Shown one piece after another: positions 11,103 to 31,195 of a stretch of DNA of 31,195 nt (position 1 is its first letter; each line of letters begins with the position of its first letter). This DNA is from an uncultured Nitrospinota bacterium (GTDB taxonomy: Bacteria; JAUXIQ01), in the NCBI GenBank assembly GCA_964452105.1, contig CAYVLI010000001.1, forward strand, positions 6,423-37,617, given 5' to 3'. The notes below the pieces were generated by a model. The model was not told the DNA's origin. It worked only from the letters and a program-made list of their open reading frames with translations, and did no database searches. Made by a program: the position numbers and the translations under genes.

Positions 11103-11131
11103 TACTTCTCATTTTTCCCTTTTTGGCTGCT

Positions 11132-11165: not shown

Positions 11166-12152
11166 TGTAAAACCCGTACCTGCGGCGCAGGCGTAGCAAT
11201 GGTCTGAAGTAATGATGTCGCTGCCGGGTTCCGGAGGGCCTGCCATATCTGCGATATGAGTTTTGCGGCCCCCCATGGGAAGTCCGGCGGCCAGATTAAA
11301 ATCGCAGTCGTAAAGGTATCCGTTCCAGTCCACCGAGAGGAGTGAACGACACATCAGCCCTTCGACATTCTGCGGATTGAAGTTTGAAGCGAGCATTTCC
11401 ATGTATGCCTCGAAGCCGCCTGAGCGCAGAAGCTGTCTCCTGAACCTCCCAAGGGGAGTCAGGCCGAACATGAAAAGGTTGTTAAATACTATTCCCCACT
11501 GCTTTTGCAGCAAGCTTCTGAACGCTTCTTCCACTTGTGATTCTGCGGCAGGCAGGTACGGGCCGGTGGGATTTGAAATTAGATTGAGTTCCAATCCCGT
11601 TCCCTCCTCTCCGTAACCCGCGGTGTTTAATTTTTTCAGCGCCGAAATGCTTTTTTGGAAAATGCCTTCCCCCCGCTGCGAGTCCGTTTCCAGCCGGTTT
11701 AAAGAAGGCAGTGAAGCGACGATGGCTACTCTGTACTTTAGGAACAGATGGAGAAGCCCTGACGGTCTGTCCTTTAGAATGGAAAGGTTGGAACGGACGG
11801 ATATCCTCTTGCTGCACGATGAGAGCCTCTCGATTAAGCCGGATAGCCCGGGGTGCAGTTCGGGGGCTCCGCCGGTGATGTCTATGGTTTGTAATCGGGC
11901 CCTTTTCGCAAAGTTCTCCACGGCATTTATTGTGTCTTCATCCATTAATTCCATTCTTTTGGGGCCGGCTTCCAGATGACAGTGCGCGCAGGCCTGGTTG
12001 CATAATCGACCCAGGTTGATTTGCAGGGTCTTCGTCTCCCCCTTCTTCAGTTCCAGGCCGTGTTCGGAGAGGCGCTGATGGAAAGATCGAACAACCCCCG
12101 ACTCCTCATCGAAGCAGAGCTGAACGCCTTCGGTCGTTGGTCTTGTATTCAT
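11142..12152 (-). CDS. arsS: ArsS-like radical SAM (seleno)protein (TIGR04167/DUF3641-type), probable Sec at the UGA 11163-11165
   Basis: CxxxCxxC in LCNQACAHCHLEAGP, DITGGAPE, LMCRSLLSVDWNGYLYDCDFN, HCYACAAGTGFT-UGA-EGAIKT*. The track stops at 11163. The read-through matches where homologues carry a terminal Cys or Sec before a GA motif. Confidence 0.85.
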
Positions 12153-12208
12153 TCCTTTTCTTCCATAGAAAGTTCATAGTTCAGGACCATATTTCTGCGC
12201 CTCCACAC

Positions 12209-13651: not shown

Positions 13652-13691
13652 AGGGGCCTCTATCATGCAGAAAATTTGTATAATTGCTTGT

Positions 13692-14462
13692 TTATTTTTC
13701 GTTCAGGGACCAATCGTAATCGTAGTAATCGATTTTAATTTTTCCCTTGTTACTTTCAAGGAAATTTTTGAGGTCACCTTCCGCATATATCAGGTAAAAA
13801 CCTATGATGTCGTTATCGAAGTCTTCTGAAAACCACTTGAATATCTCGTTTACGTATAGAGTATGGTACTCAATCCTGTAACGCTGCGGGTCGTTTATAA
13901 ACGTTCGCGTGGAGTCGTCCAGTTGCTGATTCAATATGTTTCCCTGATATGGTTCAGCGCGGAGAGGGGGACAACCTTTCGAAGCGCAGTTTACAGCGAA
14001 ATGCGCCCGCGGGTCTTTAAAACGGGGTCGGATAATTCCATGCTCGATGTGGTCGAGGGTGAGTCTATCACCGTCGATGCTGCAAATCTTCTTCTTCCAG
14101 GGGCTCCTGAATATATTCCCCAAATCTTTTATTGATTTAACACCAGGGTAGGCGCTCAGTATCAGCTTAATGGTACAGGCATTATATGCGTTCAGGTAGA
14201 AGGCGAGCTGTTCCTCTCTGGGGAGGTTATTTGTATCCGTTTCTTTCAGTATTTTGAGATATCTATCGAGTTTGGATTCTTCGTTTTTAAACCCTTTGTA
14301 ATCCACTATTCCTTTATCATTATATTTGATTAACAGCCTGGCGTAAAGGCTGTGGTCCACGGTATCGGTGTCTGTGCTTGCCTCAGCCTGAATTGAGAGT
14401 CCAACAAAAAAGATTAACGATAAGATTATGTAGAAACAGAATGTATTTGTTTTTGTGTTCAT
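13692..14462 (-). CDS. DUF547 domain-containing exported protein
   Basis: Signal-peptide-like N-terminus, VDYKG, LAFYLNAYNA, TLDHIEHGIIR, DPRAHFAVNCASKGCPPL, IFKWF.EDF, YDYDWSLN. GAGG RBS. Confidence 0.9.
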   Translation of the reverse strand: MNTKTNTFCFYIILSLIFFVGLSIQAEASTDTDTVDHSLYARLLIKYNDKGIVDYKGFKNEESKLDRYLKILKETDTNNLPREEQLAFYLNAYNACTIKLILSAYPGVKSIKDLGNIFRSPWKKKICSIDGDRLTLDHIEHGIIRPRFKDPRAHFAVNCASKGCPPLRAEPYQGNILNQQLDDSTRTFINDPQRYRIEYHTLYVNEIFKWFSEDFDNDIIGFYLIYAEGDLKNFLESNKGKIKIDYYDYDWSLNEK

Positions 14463-17110: not shown

Positions 17111-18556
17111 ATGAATGGCAAGATGTCTGGAGAACGGATACTCATAGCGGACGATGAAGAGAGCATAAGGCTGGTTCTCAAGCGTGGCCTGGAGAAGAGG
17201 GGGCATGTGGTGGATACCGCCTGCGATGGCAAGGAAGCCCTGGCCAAAGGCCTGGAGCGGCCATACGCTCTCATATTTATGGATATAAAGATGCCGGGGA
17301 TGAGCGGCCTGGATGTCCTGGAAAAGATAAAGGAGAAACGGCCCCAGGCCCTGGTGATAGTCATAACCGCCCAGAGCTCCATGAGCAATGCCATCGGCGC
17401 CATGAAGAGAGGCGCCTTCGATTACATTGTAAAGCCCTTTGACATGGAGCAGATTTATCTGAAGGCTGAGAAGTCCCTTAAGGAAAAGGCCATGCAGAGG
17501 AGGCTGGCGTCATACATGGCCGATAAACCGGAGCGGCATGAGGACGAGATTATAGGCAAGAGCCCGGCCATGCAGGAGGTGTTCCTGAGCATAGGAAAAG
17601 TGGCCCGGAGCGACACCACCGTACTCATCCTCGGCGAAAGCGGAACGGGCAAGGAACTCGTGGCCCGCATCATACACAGAAACAGCCCCCGAGCCGAAAA
17701 CCCCTTCGTAGCGGTGAACTGTGCCGCCATACCCAGGGACCTCCTGGAGAGCGAGCTTTTCGGGCACGAGAAAGGAGCTTTCACAGGCGCGACCGCTCCC
17801 AGGATGGGCAAGTTCGAGATGGCAGACGGAGGAACCATATTCCTGGATGAGGTGGGTGATCTCGACCTTTCGATGCAGACCAAAGTGCTCAGAGTTCTCC
17901 AGGAGAGAGAGATAGACAGGGTGGGAGGCGGGTATCCCATAGGTGTGGACGTGAGGGTCATAGCCGCCACGGACCGGGATCTGGAAACGGCCATGAGGGA
18001 GAAAAAGTTTCGCGAGGGCCTCTACTACAGGTTGAACGTGGTACAGATCGAGTTGCCTCCTCTCAAGAAGAGGAAGGAGGACCTGCCGTTGTTGATAGAT
18101 TTCTTCCTCCACAAATTCCAGAAAGAATTGGGGATGGGTCCCAGGTATATAACAGCGGATGCTATGGACCTTCTGAGAGAGTACGACTGGCCGGGGAACG
18201 TTCGAGAGGTGGAGAACATGATCAAACGCTCCATAGTCCTCACTACGGGAGAGAGCATCACTTCCGAGCATTTTCCGTCTTTCCTCAGGGAGGGGCGCAA
18301 CCCCGGGGAGGGGGCGGCGTTTTCCATGGAAGGTCTTATGGAAGAAAAGCTGAGGGATATTGTCAGCAAGATGTGCCGTGCGGGACAAGGAGACCTCTAC
18401 AATATGGTCATGGAGTGTATGGAAAAGCCGCTCCTGGAGATGGTGCTGGCCGAATGCAAGGGGAATAAGCTCAAGGCGGCCAGGGTGCTGGGAATCAACA
18501 GGAACACCTTGCGAAAGAAGATGCAGACTCTGGGTATAGAGGTTAGAAAGGAATAG
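17111..18556 (+). CDS. ntrC: NtrC-type sigma54-dependent response regulator
   Basis: Receiver (ADDE, MDIKMP), AAA+ domain GESGTGKELVAR, ESELFGHEKGAFTGA, FLDEVGD, YDWPGNVRE, Fis-type HTH (GNKLKAARVLGINRNTLRKK). Confidence 0.92.
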   Translation: MNGKMSGERILIADDEESIRLVLKRGLEKRGHVVDTACDGKEALAKGLERPYALIFMDIKMPGMSGLDVLEKIKEKRPQALVIVITAQSSMSNAIGAMKRGAFDYIVKPFDMEQIYLKAEKSLKEKAMQRRLASYMADKPERHEDEIIGKSPAMQEVFLSIGKVARSDTTVLILGESGTGKELVARIIHRNSPRAENPFVAVNCAAIPRDLLESELFGHEKGAFTGATAPRMGKFEMADGGTIFLDEVGDLDLSMQTKVLRVLQEREIDRVGGGYPIGVDVRVIAATDRDLETAMREKKFREGLYYRLNVVQIELPPLKKRKEDLPLLIDFFLHKFQKELGMGPRYITADAMDLLREYDWPGNVREVENMIKRSIVLTTGESITSEHFPSFLREGRNPGEGAAFSMEGLMEEKLRDIVSKMCRAGQGDLYNMVMECMEKPLLEMVLAECKGNKLKAARVLGINRNTLRKKMQTLGIEVRKE

Positions 18557-18562
18557 CAGGCA

Positions 18563-20971
18563 GTGGTGAAGAAGCTTTGGAAAAAACTGGATGAGGGAGC
18601 GCTGCTTTTCGACGGCGCCATGGGAAGCATGCTTCAGCACCGCTTTCAACGGCCCGGGGTATGTCTTGAGGAGTTGAACCTTCTGGAGCCGGAAATGGTG
18701 CGAAGCGTCCATGTGGCTTATGTCGATGAGGGCGTTGATGTAATAGAGACGAATACGCTGGGTGCCAACGCAGTAAAACTGAGTGAACACGGCCTCGGCC
18801 ACAAGGTTGAGGAGATAAACAGGCAGGCTGTCAAACTGGCCAGGGAGGCGGCATCGGGCAGATGTCTGGTGGCTCTCTCGGTGGGCTCGACGGGGAAATT
18901 TCTCGAGCCTATCGGTTCCATGACCTTCGATGAAATGCGCGAGGTTTTCCGGGCGCAGATATCTGCCGCAGCACGGGAAGGGGTGGATTTGGTGGTGATC
19001 GAGACCATATCCGACCTGAAAGAGATGAGGGCCGCGGTGGTGGCGGCCAAAGAGGCGGTTTCGGTTCCCATTATGGCTACCATGACCTTCCAGGAAGACG
19101 GCCGCACCCTCCTGGGTACCAGCCCGGAAGCGGCTGCCGTATGCCTCGAATCCATGGGGGTGAGCATAATAGGCGCGAATTGCGGCACCGGGCCTGAAAC
19201 CATGGTTCAGGTTTTGAGGGAGCTCAAGCGCTCCACAGGAGCTAAGGTAGCGGCACAGCCCAATGCAGGCATGCCCAGGCTGGAGGCCGGCAGGACCGTT
19301 TTCCCCCTCACTCCTGAGGAGATGGCTGATTATTACGTCCGCTTAATCAAGGAGGGGGCGGATGTCATCGGCGGTTGCTGCGGTACGACGCCGCAGCACA
19401 TGAGGGCGATGATCAAAGCCGTGAGGGATATCAAGCCTGCTTCGGCTGCGCCTCGTCTGGAGAGTACGGTGTTATCGAGCCGCAGCAGGGTGGTGAGGAT
19501 AGGAAACGGTTGCTTTCCGGTTGTAATAGGAGAGAGGATAAACCCCACGGGGCGCAAGAAGCTCTCCGGGGAACTGATGGAGGGAAAGCTGGACGCCGTT
19601 TTGAAAGAAGCCAGGGAACAGGTTGAAGCCGGAGCGGACCTCCTCGATGTTAACGTAGGAGCGCCCGGGGCCGACGAGGTGGGCCTCATGAGGGGGGCTT
19701 CGCTGGCTGTACAGCGCCAGGTGGCTTCTCCTCTGGTGCTGGACTCTCCCGACCCGCAGGCTCTGGAGGCTGGACTCAAGGCGGCGGATGGCAAGGTTCT
19801 CATCAACTCCGTGAACGGTGAACGGGAGAAGATAGAGGCGATAGTCCCTCTTGCTGTGAAATACGGGGCGGCGGTAATAGGATTGACCCTGGACGAGAAG
19901 GGCATATCCGAACGGGCTGCAGAGCGGCTGAAGGTAGCCCGTACTATCCTCGATGCCTCGATGGAGCTGGGACTTTCCAAAATGGACTTGATAATCGACT
20001 GTCTTGCCCTCTCCGTCAGCACGGATCAGGAGTTAGCCCTGGAGACCCTCCGCGCTATCGAATCCATAAAGAAGGAGTTGGGGCTTCCCATTTCACTTGG
20101 AGTCAGTAACGTCTCCTTCGGCCTGCCGGCGAGGGGGCTGATCAATTCAGCCTTCCTGGCCATGGCCCTGGGCTGCGGCCTTGACTGCGCCATTATGAAC
20201 CCCAAGGATTCGCGGATGATGGAGACCTTACAGGCCTCGGCTGTGCTCATGGGGAGGGATAAGAAGGCGCTGAGGTTCATAGACTCATATGGCAGGAGCG
20301 CTCCCGAGGTAAGAGCCGAAAAAGTTGAAGAACCTGTCGGCCCGGCCCGAAAGCTGTTTCGAGCAATAGTGGAGGGTCATAAAGAGAACATCCTCTCTCT
20401 TATGGAGGGGGTGTTTGAAGAGGGTGTTCCCCCCATGGAGCTGAGTGATGCCATACTCATCCCGGCGCTGGAAGAGGTGGGCCGGAAGTTTGAGAGCAAG
20501 GACTTTTTCCTACCGCAGGTAATGTTGTCCGCCGAAGCTGCCAAGATAGCTTTCGTCCGCATCAGGGAAGTATTAAAGGGGCATGAGACTGTATCCAGGG
20601 GGAAAGTCATAATGGCCACTGTAATGGGGGACATTCACGATATCGGCAAAAATATCGTCTCCATGCTTCTGGAAAATCATGGTTTTGAGGTGTTGAACCT
20701 GGGGATAAACGTCCCGGCGGAAAAAATTGCTGAGGCGGCGGTAGATAACAGTGTGGATGCCATCGGCTTGAGCGCCCTGATGACCACTACCATGCTGGAA
20801 ATGGGTAAAACGGTGAAGTATCTCAAGCAGAGGGAGATAAACTGCCCTATAATAGTGGGCGGGGCCGCGGTGACGCCTGAGTTCGCTGCCGAGATAGGGG
20901 CGGATGCCTATGGCAGGGACGCAGTGGATGCGGTGAACATAGCGAAGAAACTCATCCCTGAGAGGAAATGA
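18563..20971 (+). CDS. metH: Cobalamin-dependent methionine synthase, three-module form (Hcy-binding, pterin-binding, cap/B12-binding) without the C-terminal reactivation domain
   Basis: DGAMGSML, Zn ligands GANCG and GGCCG, IGERINPTG, LGVSNVSFG, B12 motif GDIHDIGKN, SALMTTT. The 802-aa protein ends right after the B12 domain. Confidence 0.9.
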   Translation: MVKKLWKKLDEGALLFDGAMGSMLQHRFQRPGVCLEELNLLEPEMVRSVHVAYVDEGVDVIETNTLGANAVKLSEHGLGHKVEEINRQAVKLAREAASGRCLVALSVGSTGKFLEPIGSMTFDEMREVFRAQISAAAREGVDLVVIETISDLKEMRAAVVAAKEAVSVPIMATMTFQEDGRTLLGTSPEAAAVCLESMGVSIIGANCGTGPETMVQVLRELKRSTGAKVAAQPNAGMPRLEAGRTVFPLTPEEMADYYVRLIKEGADVIGGCCGTTPQHMRAMIKAVRDIKPASAAPRLESTVLSSRSRVVRIGNGCFPVVIGERINPTGRKKLSGELMEGKLDAVLKEAREQVEAGADLLDVNVGAPGADEVGLMRGASLAVQRQVASPLVLDSPDPQALEAGLKAADGKVLINSVNGEREKIEAIVPLAVKYGAAVIGLTLDEKGISERAAERLKVARTILDASMELGLSKMDLIIDCLALSVSTDQELALETLRAIESIKKELGLPISLGVSNVSFGLPARGLINSAFLAMALGCGLDCAIMNPKDSRMMETLQASAVLMGRDKKALRFIDSYGRSAPEVRAEKVEEPVGPARKLFRAIVEGHKENILSLMEGVFEEGVPPMELSDAILIPALEEVGRKFESKDFFLPQVMLSAEAAKIAFVRIREVLKGHETVSRGKVIMATVMGDIHDIGKNIVSMLLENHGFEVLNLGINVPAEKIAEAAVDNSVDAIGLSALMTTTMLEMGKTVKYLKQREINCPIIVGGAAVTPEFAAEIGADAYGRDAVDAVNIAKKLIPERK

Positions 20972-22014
20972 TAGAACAAGTATCGAGTATCATGGATACG
21001 CTGGCTGCTGCAGTGATCCTGGCCGCCGGGAAGGGGGTCAGGATGGTTTCCGAGAGGGCCAAGGTGCTTCACCCCCTGTGCGGAGAGCCGATGTTGGGCC
21101 ATGTTCTTCGGGCGGTGGCCGAATGCGGCCCGGAGAGGACGCTGGTGGTGGTAGGCCATCAGGCTGAAGAAGTAAAGGCGGCTTTCGCCGATGAGAAAGT
21201 GGAATTCGTCCTGCAGGAAGAGCAGCGAGGCACCGGCCACGCTCTGATGCAAACCGAGAAATACCTGGGAGGTTGCGGCGGGGAAATCCTGGTGGTTCCC
21301 GGCGATACTCCTCTTCTTAAAGCGCAGACGCTTCTTACTCTTCTGAAAACGCACAGGGAAACCGGAGCAACGGTCTCCTTGCTGACGGCTCGATTGCCGG
21401 ACGCTGCGGGCTACGGCAGGGTTATTCGAGAGAGGGACGGCTCGGTGGCGAGGATAGTGGAGGACAGGGATGCGACTGTCGAAGAAGCCGCAGTCAACGA
21501 AATCAATGTAGGCGCATACTGTTTCGCAGCGTCCTTTCCCTTCGAGGCCCTGCTGAAGGTAAGGGATGATAACGCGCAAGGGGAGTTGTATCTCACGGAT
21601 GTGGTGGAGGTGGCGGTAGGTAATAGAGAAAAGGTAGCGGCGCTCGAGGCGGATGCTGATGAAGTGATGGGTGTGAACAGCAGGGTGGAGTTGGCGAGGG
21701 CGGAAAAGATAATGCGGAGCGAAATAAACCGATGCTGGATGCTTCGCGGTGTCACGATGGTGAATCCGGCTGCCACTTATGTCGATAGCGGCGCGAAAAT
21801 CGGGGTGGATTCCGTCATGCACCCCGGCTGCCATATACTGGGAGAATCAGTCATCGGTGAGCGGTGCACGGTCATGCCTGGAGCCATAGTAATAGACAGT
21901 CGGATCGGTCGGGAAGCCCGCCTGGGGCCGTATTGTATTCTGGAGCGCATCTCTGTCCCTGATGGGGGTGAGGTAGCGCCGTTTGAGATTAAGAGAGGAA
22001 CCGACCGGCCATAA
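20968..22014 (+). CDS. glmU: GlmU, C-terminally truncated (uridyltransferase domain, linker and first LbH coils only)
   Basis: ILAAGKGVRM...AKVLH, QRGTGHA, GDTPLL, GYGRVIR, IVEDRD, EINVG, NAQGELYLTD, GVNSR. Ends at VAPFEIKRGTDRP* (equivalent to GPFARLRP) after 348 aa. ATGA overlap with metH. Confidence 0.9.
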   Translation: MIEQVSSIMDTLAAAVILAAGKGVRMVSERAKVLHPLCGEPMLGHVLRAVAECGPERTLVVVGHQAEEVKAAFADEKVEFVLQEEQRGTGHALMQTEKYLGGCGGEILVVPGDTPLLKAQTLLTLLKTHRETGATVSLLTARLPDAAGYGRVIRERDGSVARIVEDRDATVEEAAVNEINVGAYCFAASFPFEALLKVRDDNAQGELYLTDVVEVAVGNREKVAALEADADEVMGVNSRVELARAEKIMRSEINRCWMLRGVTMVNPAATYVDSGAKIGVDSVMHPGCHILGESVIGERCTVMPGAIVIDSRIGREARLGPYCILERISVPDGGEVAPFEIKRGTDRP

Positions 22015-22044
22015 TCCAGCTTCTCTAACAAGGGTGGGGGAAAA

Positions 22045-23247
22045 ATGAAAGCTGTCATTCTAACGGGTGGAAGAGCCACAAAGCTGGAGCCTTTCACTGC
22101 CACCAGACCTGCGGTGATGATTAACATCAGCGGCAGGTATCTTCTCGAGAATATCATATCTTTGCTTAGAGCGGCGGGGATCGTGGATATCGTGCTTGTG
22201 GTGGGTTATAAGCGGGAAAAGATAATTGATTACTTTAAAGGCGGTGGCGATCAGGGCGTTAACATAACCTATGCCGTCCAGGATGAGCCGGCGGGCATAG
22301 GTGATGCAGTCCTGAAGGCCAGGGATAAAGTTCTGCGTGGTGAATACTTCATGCTGGTGTATGGGGATACGCTCACCTGCTCTAATATATACAACGGCGC
22401 CATCAATTCTTTCAACTCCTTCAAGCTTCCCATAGCGTCCGTCTGTCTCACTCCCGCCACCCAGCGGTACGGCAACATATTTATGGATGGGGAGATGAAC
22501 ATCCACCGAATAATAGAGAAACCGCATGGGGAAGAGCTGGGGAATTATGTCCTGGCCGGAGCGTTCATTCTGCCCAGCGATTTTTTTAATCTGCTGCAAG
22601 AGAGCAATTGCGTCATGGAGGAAGCGCTGGATGCGGTTATCGGTGAGCAGGGGTTGAAAGCTTCCATCTGGGAAGAGGACTGGGTGGATATAGGACATCC
22701 CTGGGACATCCTGCGAGGCAACAAAATGATAATGGATTCCTGGGAGTATGCCTCTATTTCCAAGGAGGCCCGGCTCATGGGGGACGTGAGCATACAGGGC
22801 CCAGTGGTCATAGCGAACGATGTCACCATAGAGAAGGGTACACTGTTAAAGGGCCCCTGCTACGTTGGGCCGGGCTCGTTCGTGGGGCATAACGCCCTGG
22901 TCAGGGAGTACACTTCCATCGGGGCCAATTCGGTGGTGGGATTCGGGGTGGAGCTTAAAAATTGCGTGCTTTTCGGCGGGTCCAAGATTGGCCGGCTTTC
23001 TTTCGTTGGCGACAGCGTAATAGGCCAGGGTGTGTATATCGGTTCTGGAACCATGACCATCAACGGCTATCTGGACGGCGGCACCGTACGGGTTAAAAGC
23101 AATGGAATGGAAATGGACACCGGCTTGCACAAAATCGGGTCGTTTGTCGGCGATAATGTCATGGTTGGATCGGGCAACACTCTTGCTGCCGGATGTATTA
23201 TACCTTCCGGGGAACGGATTCCTCATCATTTTACATTCCCGAAATAA
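22045..23247 (+). CDS. Archaeal-type bifunctional GlmU-like nucleotidyltransferase/LbH protein with degenerate active sites (candidate pseudoenzyme)
   Basis: Full architecture (VYGD, YG, IIEKP, WVDIGHPWDIL, GPVVI..GPCYVG, ELKNC, VGDSVIG, DTG..KIGSFVGD), but GGRATKL..RPA replaces G.GTR...PK and RLSFVGDS replaces HLSYVGDS. Confidence 0.85.
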   Translation: MKAVILTGGRATKLEPFTATRPAVMINISGRYLLENIISLLRAAGIVDIVLVVGYKREKIIDYFKGGGDQGVNITYAVQDEPAGIGDAVLKARDKVLRGEYFMLVYGDTLTCSNIYNGAINSFNSFKLPIASVCLTPATQRYGNIFMDGEMNIHRIIEKPHGEELGNYVLAGAFILPSDFFNLLQESNCVMEEALDAVIGEQGLKASIWEEDWVDIGHPWDILRGNKMIMDSWEYASISKEARLMGDVSIQGPVVIANDVTIEKGTLLKGPCYVGPGSFVGHNALVREYTSIGANSVVGFGVELKNCVLFGGSKIGRLSFVGDSVIGQGVYIGSGTMTINGYLDGGTVRVKSNGMEMDTGLHKIGSFVGDNVMVGSGNTLAAGCIIPSGERIPHHFTFPK

Positions 23248-23261
23248 GGAGAGATTTTAAA

Positions 23262-25079
23262 TTGTGCGGAATTATCGGTATCGCCGGCTTTAATAATGTT
23301 GCTCATCAATTAGTCAGCAGCTTGAAAAACCTGGAATACAGGGGCTACGATTCCTGCGGGGTCGCCCTGGTCGATGATATGGCCATAGATGTGCGAAAGA
23401 ACATAGGAACCATCGAGGAGGTGGAGATAAAGGAGAAACTTTCCGAACCCAGGGGCAAAGTGGGCATAGGCCACACGCGCTGGGCGACCCACGGTATGGT
23501 GGCCGTGGAAAACGCTCATCCTCATACCAGCGCCAAGAAGGATTTCGCCGTGGTGCATAACGGCATAATCTCCAACTATACCGAGTTGAAGGAAGGGTTG
23601 GAAGGGGAGGGGTACAGGTTAGTTTCACAGACTGATACGGAGGTCATCGCCCACCTCATGGAGAAGAACTACTCGTTGACCAATGACCTGGAGGAAGCCT
23701 TCATTCAAACTCTACATTGCATTGAAGGAACTTACGCCATGGCGATGGTTTCCATATACGATCCCGACAGGGTATTCTGTGCCAAGATGGAGAGCCCTCT
23801 CATACTTGGCATAGGCCGGAGAGCCAACTATGTGGGCTCCGATTTCAACGCTTTCATAGAATATACCAAGAAGGCCATGGTGATGGAGGATGGGGAATAC
23901 GCCATACTGACCAGGGACAGTTATACGGTAAAGGATATTTTCACCAGGGATATAAAAGAGAAGTCCATCATGGAGATAGAGTGGGATATGGAGATGTCCC
24001 AGAAGGGTGGATATCCTCATTACATGCTCAAGGAGATACACGAGCAGCCACATACGGTGGTCAACGCACTGAACATATACGAGGAGGAGATCGAACGCCT
24101 GGCCCGGTCCATTGCCGAGAGCGGGCAGACTTATCTAATAGGCGCCGGGACCACTTATTATGTTTCCATGATAGCGCAGTACTATTTCTCCGATATCGCG
24201 GGAAGATTTATCCCCGCAATATGTTCTGATGAGTTCAACAACCTGGCTGCGGTGGGTGGTGATTCGATGGTGGTGGCGGTATCACAATCGGGGGAGACCT
24301 ATGACACCCTGAGCGCATTGAGATTCGCACAGGGGCGGGGGGCGAGAACTGCGGCCGTCGTGAACGTTATGGGGTCTTCCATGGCCCGGATGGTGGACCA
24401 CGCCATCATGCAGGGGTCGGGACCCGAGATATGTGTGTTGAGCACCAAGGCTGCTCTGGCTCAGATAGTCGTGCTATTGAGGACAGCTATAACGTTGGCC
24501 CGGATGGAGGGGACCATTTCGAAAAGCGAAGAGGATTCGTTGAGAAAAGACATCTCAGACCTCCCCCCGTTGCTGCAGAAAATACTCAACGAAAAATCGG
24601 GTCTGATAAACAACCTGGCTCGTAAAAACAGCGGCCAGAAAAACTGGATTTTTCTGGGGAGAGGCATCTATTACCCCATAGCTCTTGAAGCCGCGCTGAA
24701 GTACAAAGAAGCTGCATACCTTCACGCGGAGGGGATGCCGGGCGGGTTCCTGAAGCATGGGACACTGGCGCTTATAGACGAGGAGCTTTATACATTAATT
24801 TTCGTGCCGCCGAGAGGGGACTCGAATTACAACCTTAACATGGGCAGCGTTGAGCAAGTGAAAGCCCGGGGCGGGCGCATGATGGCTTTCCATTTCAATC
24901 GCATTAAGCAGCATAAGGAGTTGTTCGATGAAGCGTTGCTCCTGCCGCCCGCGCCTGAACTCACGGCCCCGCTGACTCAACTGGTGGCGGCGCAGCTCTT
25001 TGCCTATTTCACCGCCCTGGCTCTTAAGCGGAACGTGGATAAACCCAGATCTCTGGCCAAATCCGTCACCGTGGCTTGA
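23262..25079 (+). CDS. glmS: Glutamine--fructose-6-phosphate aminotransferase (isomerizing)
   Basis: TTG-TGC-GGA (fMet-Cys-Gly) at 23262 after AGGAG. GIGHTRWATHG, HNGII, TDTE, SQSGET, ALEAALKYKE, LKHG, LAKSVTV. The track start at 23193 would bury the catalytic Cys. Confidence 0.95.
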   Translation: MCGIIGIAGFNNVAHQLVSSLKNLEYRGYDSCGVALVDDMAIDVRKNIGTIEEVEIKEKLSEPRGKVGIGHTRWATHGMVAVENAHPHTSAKKDFAVVHNGIISNYTELKEGLEGEGYRLVSQTDTEVIAHLMEKNYSLTNDLEEAFIQTLHCIEGTYAMAMVSIYDPDRVFCAKMESPLILGIGRRANYVGSDFNAFIEYTKKAMVMEDGEYAILTRDSYTVKDIFTRDIKEKSIMEIEWDMEMSQKGGYPHYMLKEIHEQPHTVVNALNIYEEEIERLARSIAESGQTYLIGAGTTYYVSMIAQYYFSDIAGRFIPAICSDEFNNLAAVGGDSMVVAVSQSGETYDTLSALRFAQGRGARTAAVVNVMGSSMARMVDHAIMQGSGPEICVLSTKAALAQIVVLLRTAITLARMEGTISKSEEDSLRKDISDLPPLLQKILNEKSGLINNLARKNSGQKNWIFLGRGIYYPIALEAALKYKEAAYLHAEGMPGGFLKHGTLALIDEELYTLIFVPPRGDSNYNLNMGSVEQVKARGGRMMAFHFNRIKQHKELFDEALLLPPAPELTAPLTQLVAAQLFAYFTALALKRNVDKPRSLAKSVTVA

Positions 25080-25195
25080 GTATTTTTTATACTGCATGGT
25101 CTGTCTAATCAGGTTTGCTCATTACGGTTGGACAAAATGGGGGTACAGGGCGCTGTGCCCCTGAATACTGATGGCGACAGGCTGAGATTACCTGT

Positions 25196-27214
25196 ATGAG
25201 TTCTTTTGTGAGACTACAAGGGACCGATGGAGTCAGAGGCATTGTCCTGCCGTCCCACCATGAGAGTATCAGGACGCTCTCTCCGCAGGAAGCGTTCCTG
25301 GAGCGAGGTGTAATCACGGAGCAGTTCGTGGAGCTCTACTGCTACTGTGTGGTACGGTGCATGATGGACTGGGGCGAGATGGGGCCGGGCCGGGAAGTTA
25401 TCGTCGGATGGGACCCCCGGGACGAGCGAGGGGAATTGACAGGTGCGGCGTTAAGAGGGGCAGCCAGGGCAGGGGCCAGTGTGCTGGCCGCAGGGGTGCT
25501 TCCCACGCCTGCCGTACCTCTCTTCATGCTTCACAGGGATGCAAGCTTGAGCCTGGTGATAACGGCTTCGCACAATCCTGCGGACCAGAACGGTATAAAA
25601 ATCTTCCTGCCTTACCTGGCCTTGAAACCTTTGCCGGCAGAGGATGACTTGATAAGCGAGGCTGTCTTTAAGACCGATTACGCTGCGATAGAGAAGCTTG
25701 ACAGTTCCGAAGCGGAAGACGTTTCGGCGCCGGCCGAGGCTCTGTTCAAGGATTTTTGTTGTCAGGAAAGAAACTCCTGGTTGAAAGATGCGGACGCCCT
25801 GAGGGCTCTGACCTTAATAGTTGACCCCGCCAACGGCTCATATACTGATATAGCGCGTGAAGTTTTCGAACGATTGGGAGTAGGAGAGGTGATAGAAGTC
25901 AATCCTTCGCGGGAGGGGTCTGTGAACCGCGGCTCCGGGGTTACCCAACTGGAGGGGAACAGATACATCGGTTCGGACCTGGTTGGAAGCGGAGGGAGGG
26001 ATTACAGCGGGAACAGGACGGTAGCGGCCCTTTTTGAAAACGGAAGACGCAAGAGGCGTGAGATGCCGGTCGGGAAAGCCCTGGTCAGCGCGGCGGTGTT
26101 CGACGCCGACGGGGACCGATTCTATCGGGTTGACTATTTGCCCGATGATGACAGGGCGGTAGTCCTCACCGGAGATGAGATTGCCTACCTCCAGGCGGAA
26201 TACCTCATGCAGAATCATCATGAAGGGGATGAAAGCGGTCTATTCGTCACTACGGTGGAGAGTGACATAAACGTTCTGTCATCCGTGGGCGGCCTGGATC
26301 TGGAAACGGCGCAGACCGGTGTGGGGGATAAGTGGATTCTGAAGGAGATAGCGGAGCGGCGTCTGCCGGCGGGGTCCGGTGCAGAGCGGCGTGATCCCAG
26401 GTCTGCCCTGAGTTTAACGGGGCCGTTTAAGGGAAGGAACGCAAGAGATGAGGGACGTGCTTTATATATGGGGTGCGAGGAATCGGGCCATAATATAACA
26501 GGAGGGTGGCTTGAAGATAAAAAGGGTGAGGCGCAGCGGGTGTTCATTGGGAACGGCCTGAAGAGTGCGGTGAACTCTTACGTTGCCACGATGTCGGTGT
26601 GGTCGCGGTTATCCCGCAGGGAATATTTTGAGCACATCAACGAACCCTTTAGCCGGGGTTTTAAGAAAACCTATTATGTGTACCACACGGACAGGAAAAA
26701 ACTGAAAAGGGGAAGCCCCGTATGGAACGGTCTGCAATCGGTGTTGATGAAGCAGGTCAGCAGCGTTCTGGGGGGCAGATGCAGGGTCCACAAGCGCAGG
26801 TTTGTCGAGGATGAAGATATGCTTTACCTCCAGGCGCACCGGGAGGGGCATCCTGCAGCGGCGGTTTTCGCCAGGAACTCCGGCACCGAAGACAAGACGG
26901 GCATTAATTTAAGAGGAGGGATGGAAGACGAGGAGCCTCTGTCGGATATAGGTTTTGAGGGCGCCGCCTACCTGGCCGGCGAGATGAAGAGCGACGCCAC
27001 GCCGATGGGCAGAGCGTCTCTGCAGATAATGGAAATGATGTTCAGAGAGGGAGCATCGCGAGAGGATGAGCTGAGGAGCAGGTTCAGGGAACTGGACGTG
27101 GAAAGGCTCATTGATGAGATGCTGAACAAAGAGAAGCTTCTTTGCAGGAGAAGAGAAGGTGTTTTGGAATTATCGACCCTGGGCGGTGAGATTTGCAGGT
27201 CGAGATTCTCATAA
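25196..27214 (+). CDS. glmM: Enlarged alpha-D-phosphohexomutase, probable phosphoglucosamine mutase, with insertions and a C-terminal extension
   Basis: GTDGVRG, GVLPTPAV, phospho-Ser motif TASHNP..QNGIK, metal loop DADGDR, GEESGH-like CEESGH, RNSGTE. 672 aa. Context between glmS and an acetyltransferase. Confidence 0.75.
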   Translation: MSSFVRLQGTDGVRGIVLPSHHESIRTLSPQEAFLERGVITEQFVELYCYCVVRCMMDWGEMGPGREVIVGWDPRDERGELTGAALRGAARAGASVLAAGVLPTPAVPLFMLHRDASLSLVITASHNPADQNGIKIFLPYLALKPLPAEDDLISEAVFKTDYAAIEKLDSSEAEDVSAPAEALFKDFCCQERNSWLKDADALRALTLIVDPANGSYTDIAREVFERLGVGEVIEVNPSREGSVNRGSGVTQLEGNRYIGSDLVGSGGRDYSGNRTVAALFENGRRKRREMPVGKALVSAAVFDADGDRFYRVDYLPDDDRAVVLTGDEIAYLQAEYLMQNHHEGDESGLFVTTVESDINVLSSVGGLDLETAQTGVGDKWILKEIAERRLPAGSGAERRDPRSALSLTGPFKGRNARDEGRALYMGCEESGHNITGGWLEDKKGEAQRVFIGNGLKSAVNSYVATMSVWSRLSRREYFEHINEPFSRGFKKTYYVYHTDRKKLKRGSPVWNGLQSVLMKQVSSVLGGRCRVHKRRFVEDEDMLYLQAHREGHPAAAVFARNSGTEDKTGINLRGGMEDEEPLSDIGFEGAAYLAGEMKSDATPMGRASLQIMEMMFREGASREDELRSRFRELDVERLIDEMLNKEKLLCRRREGVLELSTLGGEICRSRFS

Positions 27215-27244
27215 GTGAATCTTTTAACAGCTTTGGAGCCTGAT

Positions 27245-28090
27245 ATGAACGAATCACAGAGCGGAGAGCAGTTTCGCCCTGAATTTTTTTTCCAGGGCCT
27301 GGCTGGTTTCAGATATGCGTCTCTATTCCAGGGGCTGACAAATGTCTGGGAGGCGGTGGCCAACCTTCATGGATACATAATGAATGCGCTTTCGAGTGAT
27401 GTGGCTTCTTCCAGCCGCGCCCTCTTCGAGCTGGATGGGGCGAGGCTGATTCCGCTTCTGGAGAAAACCCCGGAGGAACGAGACGGCATTCTTTCGTCCC
27501 AGGGCTACATGGTCCTGGAAGAGGACGTGTACCTCGAAGGGATAAGCATAGCAATCGGAAGAGGAACGATAATAGAGCCGGGGGTGGTTATCAAGTCCCC
27601 TACCATCATAGGCAGAGGGGCGGAACTGCGCCAGGGCGCATATATCAGGGGCAGAGTGATAATAGGGGATGAAGCGGTGGTGGGCCACGCCACCGAGGTA
27701 AAAAATTCCTTGTTCCTGGATCATGCCGAGGCCGGCCATTTCGCCTACGTCGGCGACAGCATCCTGGGGCGTCATGTGAACCTGGGAGCGGGAACCAAGC
27801 TGGCCAACCTGGAGCTGCGCGGCCCGCAGGACAAGGAGTCGGGCATTATTAAGCCCATCGTTATTACAGTAAACGGACGGCAGTACGATACGGGACTGGA
27901 GAAGCTTGGCGCAGTGCTGGGAGACGACGTGGAAACGGGATGTAATTCGGTGACGTCTCCAGGCGTTCTGGTGGGCCCCGGTTCCTGGATATACGCAAAC
28001 ACGACGGTCAAGAAGGGGTTCTACGGGAGCGATGTGATCATAAGAAACAGGAACGGCAGACTGAATTCCTCGCCCAGGCGCATGACCTGA
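27245..28090 (+). CDS. Stand-alone LbH acetyltransferase, probable glucosamine-1-phosphate N-acetyltransferase
   Basis: Hexapeptide repeats, GAYIRG, EVKNS, HFAYVGDSILG..VNLGAGTKLAN, DTGLEKLGAVLGD. No nucleotidyltransferase domain. ATG 27245 follows GGAG; GTG 27215 is an alternative start. Confidence 0.8.
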   Translation: MNESQSGEQFRPEFFFQGLAGFRYASLFQGLTNVWEAVANLHGYIMNALSSDVASSSRALFELDGARLIPLLEKTPEERDGILSSQGYMVLEEDVYLEGISIAIGRGTIIEPGVVIKSPTIIGRGAELRQGAYIRGRVIIGDEAVVGHATEVKNSLFLDHAEAGHFAYVGDSILGRHVNLGAGTKLANLELRGPQDKESGIIKPIVITVNGRQYDTGLEKLGAVLGDDVETGCNSVTSPGVLVGPGSWIYANTTVKKGFYGSDVIIRNRNGRLNSSPRRMT

Positions 28091-28100
28091 TCTCCCTATC

Positions 28101-30293
28101 GTGATGAAAATAGAGAAGAAGATAGATATCGACGGCAGCCTCAACGATATGCAGAAGGAGGCTGTAAGATATACGGAAGGGCCTCTGCTGGTGCTGGCTG
28201 GAGCCGGTTCCGGCAAGACCAGGGTCATTGTCCATCGCATCGCCCATCTGGTAGGAGCGCTGGGCGTGGCTCCTTATAACATACTGGCTATAACCTTCAC
28301 CAATAAAGCCGCCAATGAGCTTAAAGAGAGGACCGCTGCTTTTTTGGGGCCGGGTGCGGGGAAATTGTGGCTGGGCACCTTCCATTCGCTGTGCAGCAGG
28401 ATACTCCGTGAAAATCCGTGGAAGCGTGAAGAGCTCAAGGGGTTTGTTATTTACGACGGGGGCGACAGCGCCTCTGTCGTCAAAAAATGCCTGAAGGAGC
28501 TCAATATCAGTTCCGAGCGATTCCCTCCTGCGGAGGTTAAGCGCAGGATCGAGCGCCTCAAGGACAGGTTGATAACGCCGGGGAAATTCGCCGGGGGAGA
28601 GGGCCTGGATTTTTTCGATGAAAAGGTGGCCCTGGTATATCCCATGTATCAGAGTAGGCTCAGAGAGGCCAGGGCGTTGGACTTCGGCGATCTGCTCATG
28701 GTAACGGTGCAATTGCTGGAGTCGGACGGGGATATCCTTAAAAGGTATCAGAAAAAATTTAAATATGTAATGGTAGATGAATACCAGGATACCAATTACG
28801 CGCAGTTCAGACTGATACAACTTCTTGGCGGCGAACACCGCAGCGTGTGCGTCGTAGGGGACGATGATCAGAGCATCTACGGGTGGCGGGGGGCGAACCT
28901 GGAGAATATCCTGCGCTTCGAAGAACATTTTCCGGGTGCGCGTGTGGTGAAGCTTGAGGAAAACTACCGCTCCACGGGGACAATCCTGAGCGTGGCCTCA
29001 TCCGTTATCAGCAAGAATGTGGGGCGTAAAGAGAAGACCCTCTGGACCAGGAGAGGTGGAGGGGACCCCATAACCTATTACATCGCAGAAGACGAGGGAG
29101 CGGAAGCGGATTACATAAGGAGGACCATTCAGCAGCTGGTTTCCAGAGGATACAGCTACCGGGATGTTGCTATACTCTATCGCACTAATGCCCAATCGAG
29201 GGTCATCGAGGAGGGCTTTCGAGCCGCAGGTGTGCCTTATCAGGTGGTCGGTGACATACAGTTCTACCAGCGCAGGGAGATAAAAGACCTTATCGCTTAT
29301 CTCAAGGTCGTGGCCAATATTTACGATTCGGTGAGCTTGAGCCGCATTATAAAAGTCCCTCCCCGGGGAATCGGAGATAAGACTCTGGATGCGGTGGAGT
29401 ATATCTGCCGGGAGGATGGCCTGCCGCTTTACAGCGGTATGGAAAAAGCCATGGAGCGAGGTCTTCTGGGGAAGGGTCGGGGAAACAGGCTCGGAGATTT
29501 TATGCTCCTGCTGAAGGGGCTGCTGGATGAGGCCGGAAGCCTGGATCCCGCAGCAGTGCTCTCCAGGATCGTCGAGACCACGGGCTACCTGGACTACCTG
29601 AGAAAGAACGATGCCATCACTGCAGCCGTGCGCACGGAGAATGTGAAGGAGTTCATGTCCTCCGCCCGACAATTCGTGGAAACGCAGCCCCAACCTACGC
29701 TACAAAATTTCCTCGACCGCCTTTCCCTTATATCCGAGCAGGACTCCTATGACCAGAGCCTGGGGGCGGTCTCGCTCATGACGCTGCACTCATCGAAAGG
29801 CCTGGAGTTCCGCGCGGTCTTCATAGCGGGCATGGAAGACGGTCTCTGCCCTCATGCAAGATCAAGCGAAGATATGGAACGGCTCGAAGAGGAACGCCGT
29901 CTCTGCTACGTGGGGATGACGCGGGCGAAAGAGAGACTGTACCTGGTCCGAGCTCGGTCCAGGACATTGCACGGCGTATCCGTCCACAATCAACCGTCGC
30001 CTTTTCTGTTTGACATACCCGAAGAGCATGTGCGGGTTATGGGCGATACTGTTCTTCGCCAGCGAAAAAGCGGATGCGGTGAAACCTCATCCGTACGCGG
30101 AAGGGCGGCGATGGCGGCGGAAGCTGGTGGAGGCCCTTTCAAGAAAGGTGCGGTGGTGATACACCCTAAATTCGGAGTGGGAGCAGTTTCCGGACGGGAA
30201 GGCGAAGGAGAAGGCCTTAAGCTGATAATCAACTTCAAGAAGTTCGGCCGCAAGAAATTGATGGTGAAATATGCGGGCCTCAAAGAAGTTTAG
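28101..30293 (+). CDS. pcrA: ATP-dependent DNA helicase PcrA/UvrD
   Basis: LAGAGSGKT, TFTNKAA, DEYQD, VGDDDQSIYGWRGA, LEENYRS, YRTNAQSR, TLHSSKGLEF, EEERRLCYVGMTRA, C-terminal Tudor-like HPKFG.G domain. Confidence 0.96.
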   Translation: MMKIEKKIDIDGSLNDMQKEAVRYTEGPLLVLAGAGSGKTRVIVHRIAHLVGALGVAPYNILAITFTNKAANELKERTAAFLGPGAGKLWLGTFHSLCSRILRENPWKREELKGFVIYDGGDSASVVKKCLKELNISSERFPPAEVKRRIERLKDRLITPGKFAGGEGLDFFDEKVALVYPMYQSRLREARALDFGDLLMVTVQLLESDGDILKRYQKKFKYVMVDEYQDTNYAQFRLIQLLGGEHRSVCVVGDDDQSIYGWRGANLENILRFEEHFPGARVVKLEENYRSTGTILSVASSVISKNVGRKEKTLWTRRGGGDPITYYIAEDEGAEADYIRRTIQQLVSRGYSYRDVAILYRTNAQSRVIEEGFRAAGVPYQVVGDIQFYQRREIKDLIAYLKVVANIYDSVSLSRIIKVPPRGIGDKTLDAVEYICREDGLPLYSGMEKAMERGLLGKGRGNRLGDFMLLLKGLLDEAGSLDPAAVLSRIVETTGYLDYLRKNDAITAAVRTENVKEFMSSARQFVETQPQPTLQNFLDRLSLISEQDSYDQSLGAVSLMTLHSSKGLEFRAVFIAGMEDGLCPHARSSEDMERLEEERRLCYVGMTRAKERLYLVRARSRTLHGVSVHNQPSPFLFDIPEEHVRVMGDTVLRQRKSGCGETSSVRGRAAMAAEAGGGPFKKGAVVIHPKFGVGAVSGREGEGEGLKLIINFKKFGRKKLMVKYAGLKEV

Positions 30294-30295
30294 GA

Positions 30296-30405
30296 GAGCT
30301 TTGTTTGTTTGATGCATAAAGGGTTTTAAATAAAATTGCTCGAAACTCGCCTGCGGCCCGACAGCGGGAAATTTTCTCGGCGGGGAAGCGAGCTTTGTTT
30401 AGTTT
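30296..30405. repeat. 11-bp direct repeats flanking a GC-rich imperfect palindrome (REP/MITE-like)
   Basis: GAGCTTTGTTT at 30296-30306 and 30390-30400. Between them GCTCG (30338-30342) pairs with CGAGC (30389-30393) and CTCGCC (30346-30351) with GGCGGG (30379-30384). Confidence 0.4.
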
Positions 30406-30489
30406 ATGGTTTATTATAAATGATGTATTTAGTATATTCGCCTGAAGGTTCTATCATGGATGCGTTTTTATCTTTTGAAGGATACATTA

Positions 30490-30777
30490 ATGAAAATAAC
30501 CGTTAAAGAAGTGGAATACGTAGCCAGACTGGCTTACCTGGAACTGGAAGAGGAGGAGAAGGAAAAATTTACCAGTCAGTTGAACGGCATCCTCGAATAT
30601 GTGGATAAGCTTAACGAACTGGACACCAGCAATGTGGAGCCCACATCGCACGTTCTGCCTATAGTGAATGTTTTCAAAGAAGATCAGGTGAAAGATTCCC
30701 ATCCCATAGAAGAGATGCTCGGGAACGCTCCTGAGCGGGAGGGGAATTTCGTGAAGGTGCCTCGGGTGGTTGAATGA
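30490..30777 (+). CDS. gatC: Asp-tRNA(Asn)/Glu-tRNA(Gln) amidotransferase subunit C
   Basis: MKITVKEVEYVARLAYLEL...QLNGILEYVDKLNELDT..VEPT.H...NAPE..GNFVKVPRVVE. ATG 30490 follows AAGGA. Confidence 0.96.
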   Translation: MKITVKEVEYVARLAYLELEEEEKEKFTSQLNGILEYVDKLNELDTSNVEPTSHVLPIVNVFKEDQVKDSHPIEEMLGNAPEREGNFVKVPRVVE

Positions 30778-30815
30778 AGGGGAAACGGTAACTTCAGACT
30801 TATATGGCGGATAGA

Positions 30816-31195
30816 ATGGAATTTTGCGGCTTGACCATACATGAGATGCAGGAATTGGCGAGGGGAGGAAAAACTACCTACACCCAGGTGGCGGAATCCG
30901 TGATAGAGCGCATCGCCGAAGTGGAAGATTCGCTGCATTCGTTCATAAGCGTGACGAGCGAATCGGCGATGGAAGCCGCAAGAAGGGCGGATGCGGTTCG
31001 TGAAGGAGGAGGCTCCGAAGGCCCGCTCCTGGGCACCCCCATGGCCATAAAGGACCTTATCTGCACGAAAGGGATTAGGACCACCTGTGCCTCGAAGATA
31101 CTGGGAGATTTCTATCCTCCTTACGATGCCACGGTGATGACCAGACTCAATGAAGCCGGAATCGTAATGGTGGGGAAGGCCAACATGGACGAGTT
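30816..31195 (+). CDS. gatA: Asp-tRNA(Asn)/Glu-tRNA(Gln) amidotransferase subunit A, N-terminal part (runs off the 3' edge)
   Basis: MEFCGLTIHE...GPLLGTPMAIKDLICTKGIRTTCASKILGDFYPPYDATV...GKANMDE. Follows gatC. Not in the ORF track; 30804 is an alternative start. Confidence 0.95.
   Translation, partial: MEFCGLTIHEMQELARGGKTTYTQVAESVIERIAEVEDSLHSFISVTSESAMEAARRADAVREGGGSEGPLLGTPMAIKDLICTKGIRTTCASKILGDFYPPYDATVMTRLNEAGIVMVGKANMDE

Follow-up and report, generated by a model that had tools for sequence, protein, structure and literature searches.

A 31,195-nucleotide (nt) stretch of contig CAYVLI010000001.1 from an uncultured Nitrospinota bacterium (assembly GCA_964452105.1), hereafter called the window, carries five adjacent genes related to the synthesis of UDP-N-acetylglucosamine (UDP-GlcNAc). 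Judging from their sequences, it is reasonably probable that the window encodes a complete, unconventionally split UDP-GlcNAc pathway, in which a homologue of GlmU serves as a ligand-binding pseudoenzyme. UDP-GlcNAc is a precursor for the synthesis of peptidoglycan and lipopolysaccharide, and a bifunctional GlmU is generally regarded as universal and essential among bacteria. In the proposed pathway, GlmS (P3) would convert fructose 6-phosphate to glucosamine 6-phosphate (GlcN-6-P), an enlarged GlmM-like mutase (P4) would convert GlcN-6-P to GlcN-1-P, a stand-alone LbH protein (P5) would acetylate GlcN-1-P to GlcNAc-1-P, and a truncated GlmU (P1) would uridylylate GlcNAc-1-P to UDP-GlcNAc. The remaining protein, P2, would bind a metabolite of the pathway, either UDP-GlcNAc or a hexosamine phosphate, and adjust the flux. 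An earlier note on this DNA had proposed that four single-function proteins of mixed bacterial and archaeal style cover the four chemical steps. Residues and synteny fit one step each, and the activities themselves are predicted from gene content, residue patterns, folds and synteny, as are the ligand and the regulatory target of P2.

The pseudoenzyme reading concerns P2 (22045..23247, + strand; 400 amino acids, aa). This protein has the full-length architecture of a nucleotidyltransferase (NT) domain followed by an LbH domain. It aligns end to end with the archaeal GlmU family (TIGR03992, Arch_glmU; profile positions 1-387 of 393) at 289.9 bits, short of the cut-off of 292.1, and with residues 1-381 of ST0452 from Sulfolobus tokodaii (PDB 2ggo). 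In ST0452 numbering, the first loop (GGRATKL) has Lys in place of Arg13; the other changes are Lys23 to Ala, Thr80 to Ile, His308 to Arg317, Tyr311 to Phe320, and Asn322 to Tyr331. We take Arg13 and Lys23 to form the catalytic loop of the NT domain and His308 (His363 in E. coli GlmU) to be the general base of the acetyltransferase; P2 lacks all three. In a sample of 123 relatives with 48-84% identity, the His308 position is Arg in all 123 and the Tyr311 position is Phe in 122. Position 13 is occupied by N (62), K (17), H (17), R (8), Q or S, and position 23 by K (54), I (31), N (16) or other residues.

When 1.84 billion representatives were searched exhaustively with HMMER, these replacements fell into a single clade. 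Of the best 140 full-length representatives (50% identity clusters), those that retain His308 (89) mostly also retain Arg13 (84/89), Lys23 (88/89), and Thr80 (73/89). In contrast, the 29 with Arg at the His308 site, which are those most similar to P2, have Arg13 in only five cases and Thr80 in none, with Ile or Val at the latter position in all 29. This contrast indicates that both catalytic sites were lost together in one clade, and it backs the roles assumed above for Arg13, Lys23, and His308. The earlier description of P2 as an archaeal-type GlmU homologue with both catalytic signatures altered is thus borne out by the alignment with ST0452 and by the clade-wide replacement.

Other columns in the P2 clade are invariant, namely Gln79, Gly86, Asp108, Glu158-Lys159-Pro160, and Asp215 in the NT domain, as well as Arg287, Glu303, Lys305, and Asn340 in the LbH domain. 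Gln79 and Gly86 align with Gln76 and Gly81 of GlmU, presumably the uracil-recognition positions, and Asp108 and Asp215 align with Asp99 and Asp208 of ST0452, which we take to be metal ligands. P2 therefore appears to keep a basic pocket in the LbH domain and the positions that correspond to uridine, sugar, and metal ligands. The loss of catalytic residues, together with ligand-pocket residues that are kept under purifying selection, is the pattern of a pseudoenzyme paralogue, and the invariant columns indicate selection for binding rather than turnover. P2 probably evolved from a bifunctional GlmU of archaeal type into a pseudoenzyme with a ligand-binding, regulatory role. For the earlier suggestion that this gene encodes a non-catalytic subunit or sensor, the absence of the canonical catalytic residues from both domains throughout the clade supports the non-catalytic part, whereas the role as a sensor is still a proposal.

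A competent but non-canonical bifunctional GlmU would be the opposite reading of P2, with P1, P4, and P5 then serving another amino-sugar nucleotide. The NCBI pipeline implies as much for the orthologue in the cultured Nitrospina gracilis, P0177 (L087:10001-11206, 401 aa): because this protein exceeds the TIGR03992 cut-off (299 bits vs. 292.1), it is named 'bifunctional sugar-1-phosphate nucleotidylyltransferase/acetyltransferase'. The full-length NT and LbH architecture, the retention of the aligned metal-ligand residues Asp108 and Asp215 and of sugar-pocket residues, and a place beside glmS that is typical for glmU genes also agree with a working enzyme. However, P0177 itself carries Asn at positions 13 and 23 and Arg in place of His308, and no close relative of P2 retains the catalytic His, which is Arg in all of them. 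Moreover, a position 13 that may be N, K, H, Q, or S and a variable position 23 are incompatible with a conserved catalytic role. Both sites were lost together and only in the P2 clade, whereas P1 and P5 retain all of their catalytic residues and are both conserved among housekeeping genes. We consider a competent P2 improbable; the name of P0177 is probably an over-annotation, and likely a systematic one.

The uridyltransferase of the proposed pathway would be P1 (glmU-N; 20968..22014, + strand; 348 aa), a putative stand-alone GlcNAc-1-P uridyltransferase. In profile searches, P1 matches eleven bacterial GlmU models over only positions 2 to about 326 of about 450, and its score against TIGR01173, which is covered up to position ~328/452, is below the whole-protein cut-off (335.7 vs. 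366.85 bits). Its alignment with solved GlmU structures extends from residue about 5 to about 330, an end point that coincides with that of the E. coli fragment GlmU-Tr331 (PDB 1fwy). The protein is cut after about five LbH coils and has no acetyltransferase site (His363 region). Since P2 starts 30 nt past the P1 stop codon, no remnant of the acetyltransferase half exists there. Profile coverage and the shared end with Tr331 agree with the earlier claim that P1 is a bacterial GlmU without its acetyltransferase half. The uridyltransferase motifs are all present (GKGVRM, KVLH, QEEQRGTGHA, PGDTP, GYGRV, VED, EINVG, and GVN), and these include the LxxGxG(T)RM...K loop and the Gln/Gly-Thr/Asp/Glu/Asn/Asn ligand residues of the domain. 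The Thr to Val change in GKGVRM is shared with the full-length GlmUs P0009, P0015, and P0018.

The three closest relatives of P1 (340-346 aa, 61-68% identity) are truncated at the same point. Most glmU-N genes of Nitrospinota encode proteins of 240-258 aa that lack LbH, and, among the glmU-N forms that adjoin a P2-like gene, the approximately 100 residues of LbH are kept only in the clade of the window. A neighbor-joining tree of GlmU N-domains is star-like; it groups the window clade with one 235-aa form (L089), while other truncated forms are scattered. A GlmU of Tr331-like length (P0007, 355 aa) was also observed in a Firmicute-style locus of the order purR ... glmU-prs-L25-pth-mfd-spoVT (L084-L086); this protein is found on six contigs and is thus not a contig-end artefact.

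The unusual appearance of the truncated P1 and the altered P2 might raise the question of decaying genes or an assembly artefact. The probability of this explanation is negligible. The same P1 truncation point occurs in three independent relatives at 61-68% identity, the same gene order is found in separate assemblies, no reading frame is disrupted, and numerous alignment columns do not vary among P2 relatives that are about 50% identical. These conservation data rule out an assembly artefact or a pseudogene.

For the acetyltransferase step, P5 (27245..28090, + strand; 281 aa) is proposed as a GlcN-1-P N-acetyltransferase based on its residues. For this stand-alone archaeal-type protein, the match to Arch_glmU is confined to the C-terminal LbH portion (profile positions 238-393). 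Within GHFAYVGDS...VNLGAGTKLAN, P5 keeps the equivalents of His308, Tyr311, Asn322, and Asn331 of ST0452, in agreement with the earlier claim of an intact HxxY/N site in a stand-alone LbH protein. A Glu-x-Lys (TEVKNS) and an Arg (YIRG) that align with those of ST0452 and E. coli GlmU are kept as well, such that the catalytic His, the Tyr/Asn/Asn set, the Glu-x-Lys, and the Arg are all present in an LbH fold. The same catalytic and ligand residues recur across 55 relatives, and PH..Y.GDS...NLGAGTKLSN is retained in the copies from Planctomycetota. The open reading frame (ORF) extends from GTG 27215, but the start codon is likely ATG 27245, where the closest orthologue begins to align. The N-terminal region of approximately 90 aa matches no part of archaeal-type GlmU, and a single-sequence AlphaFold 2 (AF2) model of P5 has a predicted local distance difference test (pLDDT) score of 38.6 and is unusable.

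The gene immediately 5' of P5 encodes P4 (25196..27214, + strand; 672 aa). It carries the Pfam PGM_PMM domains I and III, and its best family is glmM (TIGR01455), with 108.7 bits against a cut-off of 447.55. Because this score is far below the cut-off, the substrate was assigned from motifs, fold, and neighbours. P4 has an alpha-D-phosphohexomutase fold with four catalytic loops, namely TASHNP (phosphoserine), FDADGDRF (metal), GCEESGH (sugar), and RNSGTE (phosphate), and these are kept across 74 relatives. The N-terminal GTDGVRG motif, which we take to be typical of GlmM, is conserved across the same 74. An AF2 model built from 51 homologues is of high confidence (pLDDT 93; predicted TM-score 0.92). 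Its top Foldseek matches are GlmM structures (6gyz, 3pdk, and 7ojr) from S. aureus, B. anthracis, and B. subtilis; the TM-scores, normalised to the target, are 0.76-0.80, and the best PDB sequence match is also a GlmM. These domains, loops, and fold matches uphold the earlier identification of an enlarged glmM-like mutase. The GTDGVRG motif, GlmM as the best match in both sequence and fold, and the adjacent acetyltransferase gene point to a putative GlcN-6-P/GlcN-1-P specificity. In N. gracilis 3/211, the orthologue (P0329) is named 'putative phosphoglucosamine mutase'. The exact P4 sequence itself had no entry when looked up in public assemblies.

The extra length of P4, approximately 225 residues, consists of several insertions and a C-terminal unit of approximately 70 aa. 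This unit (residues ~603-671; window 27014-27211) is confidently modelled as helix-helix-helix-strand-strand-helix, and it is present across the family despite weak sequence conservation. By the order of its secondary structure elements alone, it is winged-helix-like. The Foldseek alignments to GlmM structures (440-455 residues) leave the extra length unexplained. Another observation concerns two loci from an uncultured bacterium and a Coatesbacteria metagenome-assembled genome (MAG) (L073:8089-9981 and L080:3192-5075), in which a fusion of ~630 aa is encoded directly 5' of the enlarged mutase. This fusion combines a receiver domain, a domain that is HD-GYP-like by eye, and a GlmU-type uridyltransferase domain, which hints at signal-controlled UDP-GlcNAc synthesis.

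The third gene is glmS (P3; 23262..25079, + strand; 605 aa), which encodes a glutamine--fructose-6-phosphate aminotransferase. Its product scores 627.9 bits against TIGR01135 (cut-off 418.05) and has two SIS domains. The gene starts with TTG 23262, located nine bases past AAGGAG and followed by TGC, such that the protein begins with Met-Cys-Gly-Ile-Ile-Gly and the nucleophile Cys1 is intact. The ATG at 23193 is thus not the start codon. The identity of the gene given in the earlier note is confirmed by TIGR01135, whereas its start codon differs from the ORF start. A second full-length GlmS was observed in a Nitrospinota groundwater MAG (JACRGR010000010.1; L072:5123-6943; TIGR01135 620.9 bits), where it lies between glmU-N and pseudo-GlmU. 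This protein starts with MSGIAG, with the glutaminase nucleophile Cys1 changed to Ser, and a normal glmS follows the pseudo-GlmU gene.

As the earlier note described, the five ORFs are all on the + strand and closely packed, with spacings from P1 to P5 of 30, 14, 116, and 0-30 nt. Their distribution among relatives reveals two separately conserved modules, one of glmU-N, pseudo-GlmU, and glmS and the other of the mutase and LbH genes. A scan for the mutase, with one genome per species and neighbourhoods of +/-10 kb, returned 80 loci. These belong mostly to Nitrospinota or Nitrospinaceae, and also to Planctomycetota, Tectomicrobia, Schekmanbacteria, Acidobacteriota, and Coatesbacteria MAGs. The mutase gene is followed by the LbH gene within 700 nt at 65 of the 74 loci with room downstream (Nitrospinota and Planctomycetota). 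A metagenome scan with the P2 alignment yielded 80 further loci, and here the P2-like gene is followed by glmS at every locus with room (70/70) and preceded by a short glmU-N at 49 of 65.

Both modules are found together in some relatives. The contigs of the closest P1 relatives have the order sigma-54 regulator, metH, glmU-N, P2-like gene, and glmS. In the nearest MAG (GCA_030620925.1), one contig carries metH, glmU-N (340 aa), P2, and glmS, and a second contig (L001) carries glmS, mutase, LbH, and pcrA, with 63-83% identity. Since this MAG contains both halves, conservation in the nearest known relative extends to the entire cluster and to the flanks on either side. Moreover, one locus (L159) has exactly the order of the window, from glmU-N, P2, glmS, mutase, and LbH to pcrA and gatC, at 36-55% identity, and two others (L089/L090) have this order with uppP inserted. 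Overall, relatives with the same cluster order and flanks have 36-84% identity. Lack of such conservation would have spoken against the earlier note; the order and the P1 truncation both recur in independent assemblies. In contrast, N. gracilis has an HTH_8 gene, glmU-N (250 aa), a P2-like gene (401 aa), and glmS at one locus, and in Nitrospinaceae neither glmS nor glmU-N nor a P2-like gene lies within +/-10 kb of the mutase-LbH pair. The P2-glmS pair stands alone at its locus in L095/L096. As the modules occupy separate loci in N. gracilis-type genomes, the five-gene cluster is a juxtaposition of two modules in one lineage. The view of a five-gene unit in the earlier note therefore holds for the order, which recurs in relatives, and is better restated as two modules.

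The tight pairing of the mutase and LbH genes across two phyla supports consecutive mutase and acetyltransferase steps. P4 and P5 may also form a physical pair that docks via the C-terminal domain of P4 and the N-terminal ~90 aa of P5, a purely speculative arrangement. Because P2 is always encoded directly 5' of glmS, GlmS is the first candidate for its target, albeit a tentative one. The fuller proposal is that P2 acts as a hexosamine-pathway sensor that binds UDP-GlcNAc or a hexosamine phosphate and throttles GlmS, with the mutase and LbH proteins as the pair that supplies the 'missing' acetyltransferase of Planctomycetota; taken as a whole, this is possible but doubtful.

Alternatively, P2 might be a structural partner that forms mixed LbH trimers with P5 through complementary half-sites, or a scaffold for the LbH-poor P1, with a GlmU-like assembly built from three polypeptides. 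P2 and P5 have paralogous LbH domains that share 32% identity over 164 aa, align in the same register, and have an archaeal-type loop in common, and R287, E303, K305, and N340 of P2 are invariant. The E. coli equivalents Arg333, Glu349, and Lys351 are presumably part of the GlcN-1-P site, to which adjacent subunits contribute in GlmU trimers. That most Nitrospinota glmU-N proteins (240-258 aa) have no LbH of their own would also suit a scaffold. However, P2 and P5 are encoded at different loci in Nitrospinaceae, the P2 gene accompanies glmS at 70 of 70 loci, and lineages such as L095/L096 have only the P2-glmS pair at that locus. In addition, P1 is of bacterial type and P2 of archaeal type. 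A structural role is thus unlikely, and regulation by a ligand-binding P2 is preferred.

Several points weigh against a split pathway with P2 as its pseudoenzyme. P4 is far under the GlmM cut-off (108.7 vs. 447.55). At one locus of a Nitrospinae MAG (L006:639-1970), a PMM/PGM-type mutase of 443 aa is encoded between glmS and the enlarged mutase, giving two mutases at one locus; the best families of this additional protein are NF007088 (458.8 bits; cut-off 618) and Arch_GlmM (393 bits; cut-off 439). It is formally possible that the Arg that replaces the general base of P2 still allows a changed chemistry. Furthermore, the adjacency of P2 and glmS may be an inherited glmU-glmS operon order that involves no physical or regulatory link; the E. 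coli glmUS operon has this gene order. Finally, a canonical glmU, glmM, or NagU-type uridyltransferase may be present elsewhere in the genome, given that the comparisons cover loci within +/-10 kb.

The last point is related to the idea that the cluster is a second, specialised pathway beside a normal glmM and a full-length glmU elsewhere, for example for UDP-GalNAc as in S. tokodaii. ST0452-type enzymes also act on GalN-1-P, and extra paralogues are found at some loci, such as the GlmS with Cys1 changed to Ser in L072 and the PMM/PGM-like mutase in L006. However, the modules are near-universal in Nitrospinota and lie among neighbours such as tig-clpP-clpX-lon-like genes, mreBCD, and dxs, not in glycan clusters. 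Moreover, the glmS of the module is the only glmS seen at these loci, and the window cluster has no epimerase. A specialised pathway is accordingly very improbable, and UDP-GlcNAc is the favored product. The possibility that the P4-P5 pair is an accessory of a glycan cluster was likewise considered unlikely in view of the housekeeping neighbours.

The setting of the cluster in the window is also of housekeeping type, with metH, pcrA, gatC, aro genes, efp, and acc genes. The cluster lies between metH (18563-20971), which is its 5' flank, and pcrA (28101-30293), which is its 3' flank and is followed by gatC. The 116-nt spacer between glmS and the mutase gene contains a GC-rich hairpin of 10 bp without a T tract (25139..25162, + strand). 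This spacer folds at -39 kcal/mol (z = -2.65 vs. shuffles), and the terminator scan made no terminator call for the hairpin. An Rfam search of the whole window found no glmS ribozyme and no other RNA family, and a tRNA search of the window found none. In a scan of 18000-30900, the counts of promoters and terminators are not above those of shuffles, such that operon boundaries are not readable from that scan.

Regulatory genes were also observed near the cluster. A sigma-54 activator with an HTH_8 domain is encoded at 17111-18556 of the window, and metH lies between this activator and the cluster, as it does in close relatives. In N. gracilis, an HTH_8 (Fis-type) protein of 88 aa (L087:8961-9227) is encoded just 5' of glmU-N, and in L089/L090 the protein at this position has 205 aa (L089:8324-8941). 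Farther upstream, a group of genes at 9095-14462 encodes a family 2 glycosyltransferase on the + strand. On the - strand, this group encodes a DUF2064/CofC-like protein, a DedA/VTT membrane protein, a protein with radical SAM and DUF3641 domains, a pyridine nucleotide-disulphide oxidoreductase, and a DUF547 protein.

If these interpretations are correct, an entire phylum of environmentally important nitrite oxidisers and relatives would make UDP-GlcNAc with separate proteins, some of bacterial and some of archaeal ancestry. Proteins that annotation pipelines name bifunctional GlmU, including that of N. gracilis, would probably lack both activities, and metabolic reconstructions would misassign the genes. 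In addition, pseudo-GlmU located before glmS would be a candidate for a new feedback control of hexosamine synthesis.

Regarding known systems, uridyltransferases and acetyltransferases that are encoded apart have been reported. Monofunctional GlmU uridyltransferases are known in Capnocytophaga (GlmUCc of Capnocytophaga canimorsus) and are reported for 30/45 Bacteroidetes genera (PMC4358021). According to a 2026 preprint, many NagU-containing bacteria have no full-length GlmU, some encode the halves separately, and a planctomycete has only the N-terminal GlmU half and an 'unidentified acetyltransferase' (bioRxiv 10.64898/2026.06.23.733835). As GlmU halves have already been reported, a split GlmU is a known kind of arrangement. 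The window differs in that the acetyltransferase is archaeal-type and is accompanied by an enlarged mutase while the uridyltransferase is bacterial-type, in that a third, catalytically dead GlmU homologue lies beside glmS, and in that no GlcNAc auxotrophy is implied. The archaeal-type LbH gene by the enlarged mutase could plausibly encode the acetyltransferase reported missing in Planctomycetota, and it would be a concrete candidate if the mutase-LbH pair works as proposed; a BLAST search with the C-terminus of S. aureus GlmU could have missed such a gene. Our literature search found no paper that ties GlmU to 'pseudoenzyme' and none on GlmU in Nitrospina, and the supplement of the N. gracilis genome paper lists no glm genes. 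The earlier note knew of no description of this arrangement. Separate halves have been described (PMC4358021; bioRxiv 10.64898/2026.06.23.733835), whereas no description of pseudo-GlmU was found; within the literature searched, the pseudo-GlmU/glmS pair and the big-mutase/LbH pair look undescribed.

With regard to individual proteins, P1 resembles GlmU-Tr331, an engineered E. coli fragment (PDB 1fwy) that, according to PMC4358021 (citing Pompeo et al., 2001), has uridyltransferase activity only. P1 aligns with residues 5-329 of this protein and carries the aligned uridyltransferase motifs. Unlike Tr331, it is natural and conserved in its lineage, in which most Nitrospinota relatives are shorter, at about 250 aa, and have no LbH. 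ST0452 (PDB 2ggo/5z09; TIGR03992) has the same two domains as P2 from end to end, and its C-terminal LbH half corresponds to P5, with the same catalytic residues. However, P2 has Lys, Ala, Ile, Arg, and Phe at Arg13, Lys23, Thr80, His308, and Tyr311, respectively, and P5 has no NT domain but an unmatched N-terminal region of about 90 aa. P4 shares the four-domain fold, the four loops, and GTDGVRG with GlmM (TIGR01455; 6gyz, 3pdk, and 7ojr), yet it is about 225 residues longer due to insertions and the C-terminal helical/beta-hairpin domain of about 70 aa.

For P2, the closest parallels are non-catalytic paralogues in other systems. GMPPA, for instance, is catalytically dead but binds GDP-mannose and holds back its paralogue GMPPB. 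In plants, the large subunit of ADP-glucose pyrophosphorylase (AGPase) has Lys and Thr where the catalytic subunit has Arg and Lys, and eIF2B gamma and epsilon are non-catalytic paralogues of the NT and LbH superfamily. P2 has the same architecture as these proteins, with the catalytic loop lost and the ligand pocket kept, and the two loop positions that differ in the AGPase large subunit are the same two that are changed in P2. In contrast to these systems, no catalytic paralogue of the same architecture is encoded next to P2, such that its partner would be GlmS, P5, or P1, and the LbH site of P2 is a former acetyltransferase site. By this analogy, P2 would most likely be a GMPPA-like, metabolite-sensing regulator. 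It may form a hetero-oligomer under allosteric control, and the data that bear on this are the adjacency of its gene to glmS (70/70) and to glmU-N (49/65). If P2 indeed acts on GlmS, the two proteins would constitute, in Nitrospinota and relatives, a protein-based feedback loop that resembles the GMPPA-GMPPB pair of animals and differs from control by the glmS ribozyme, by the small RNAs GlmY/GlmZ, or by GlmR.

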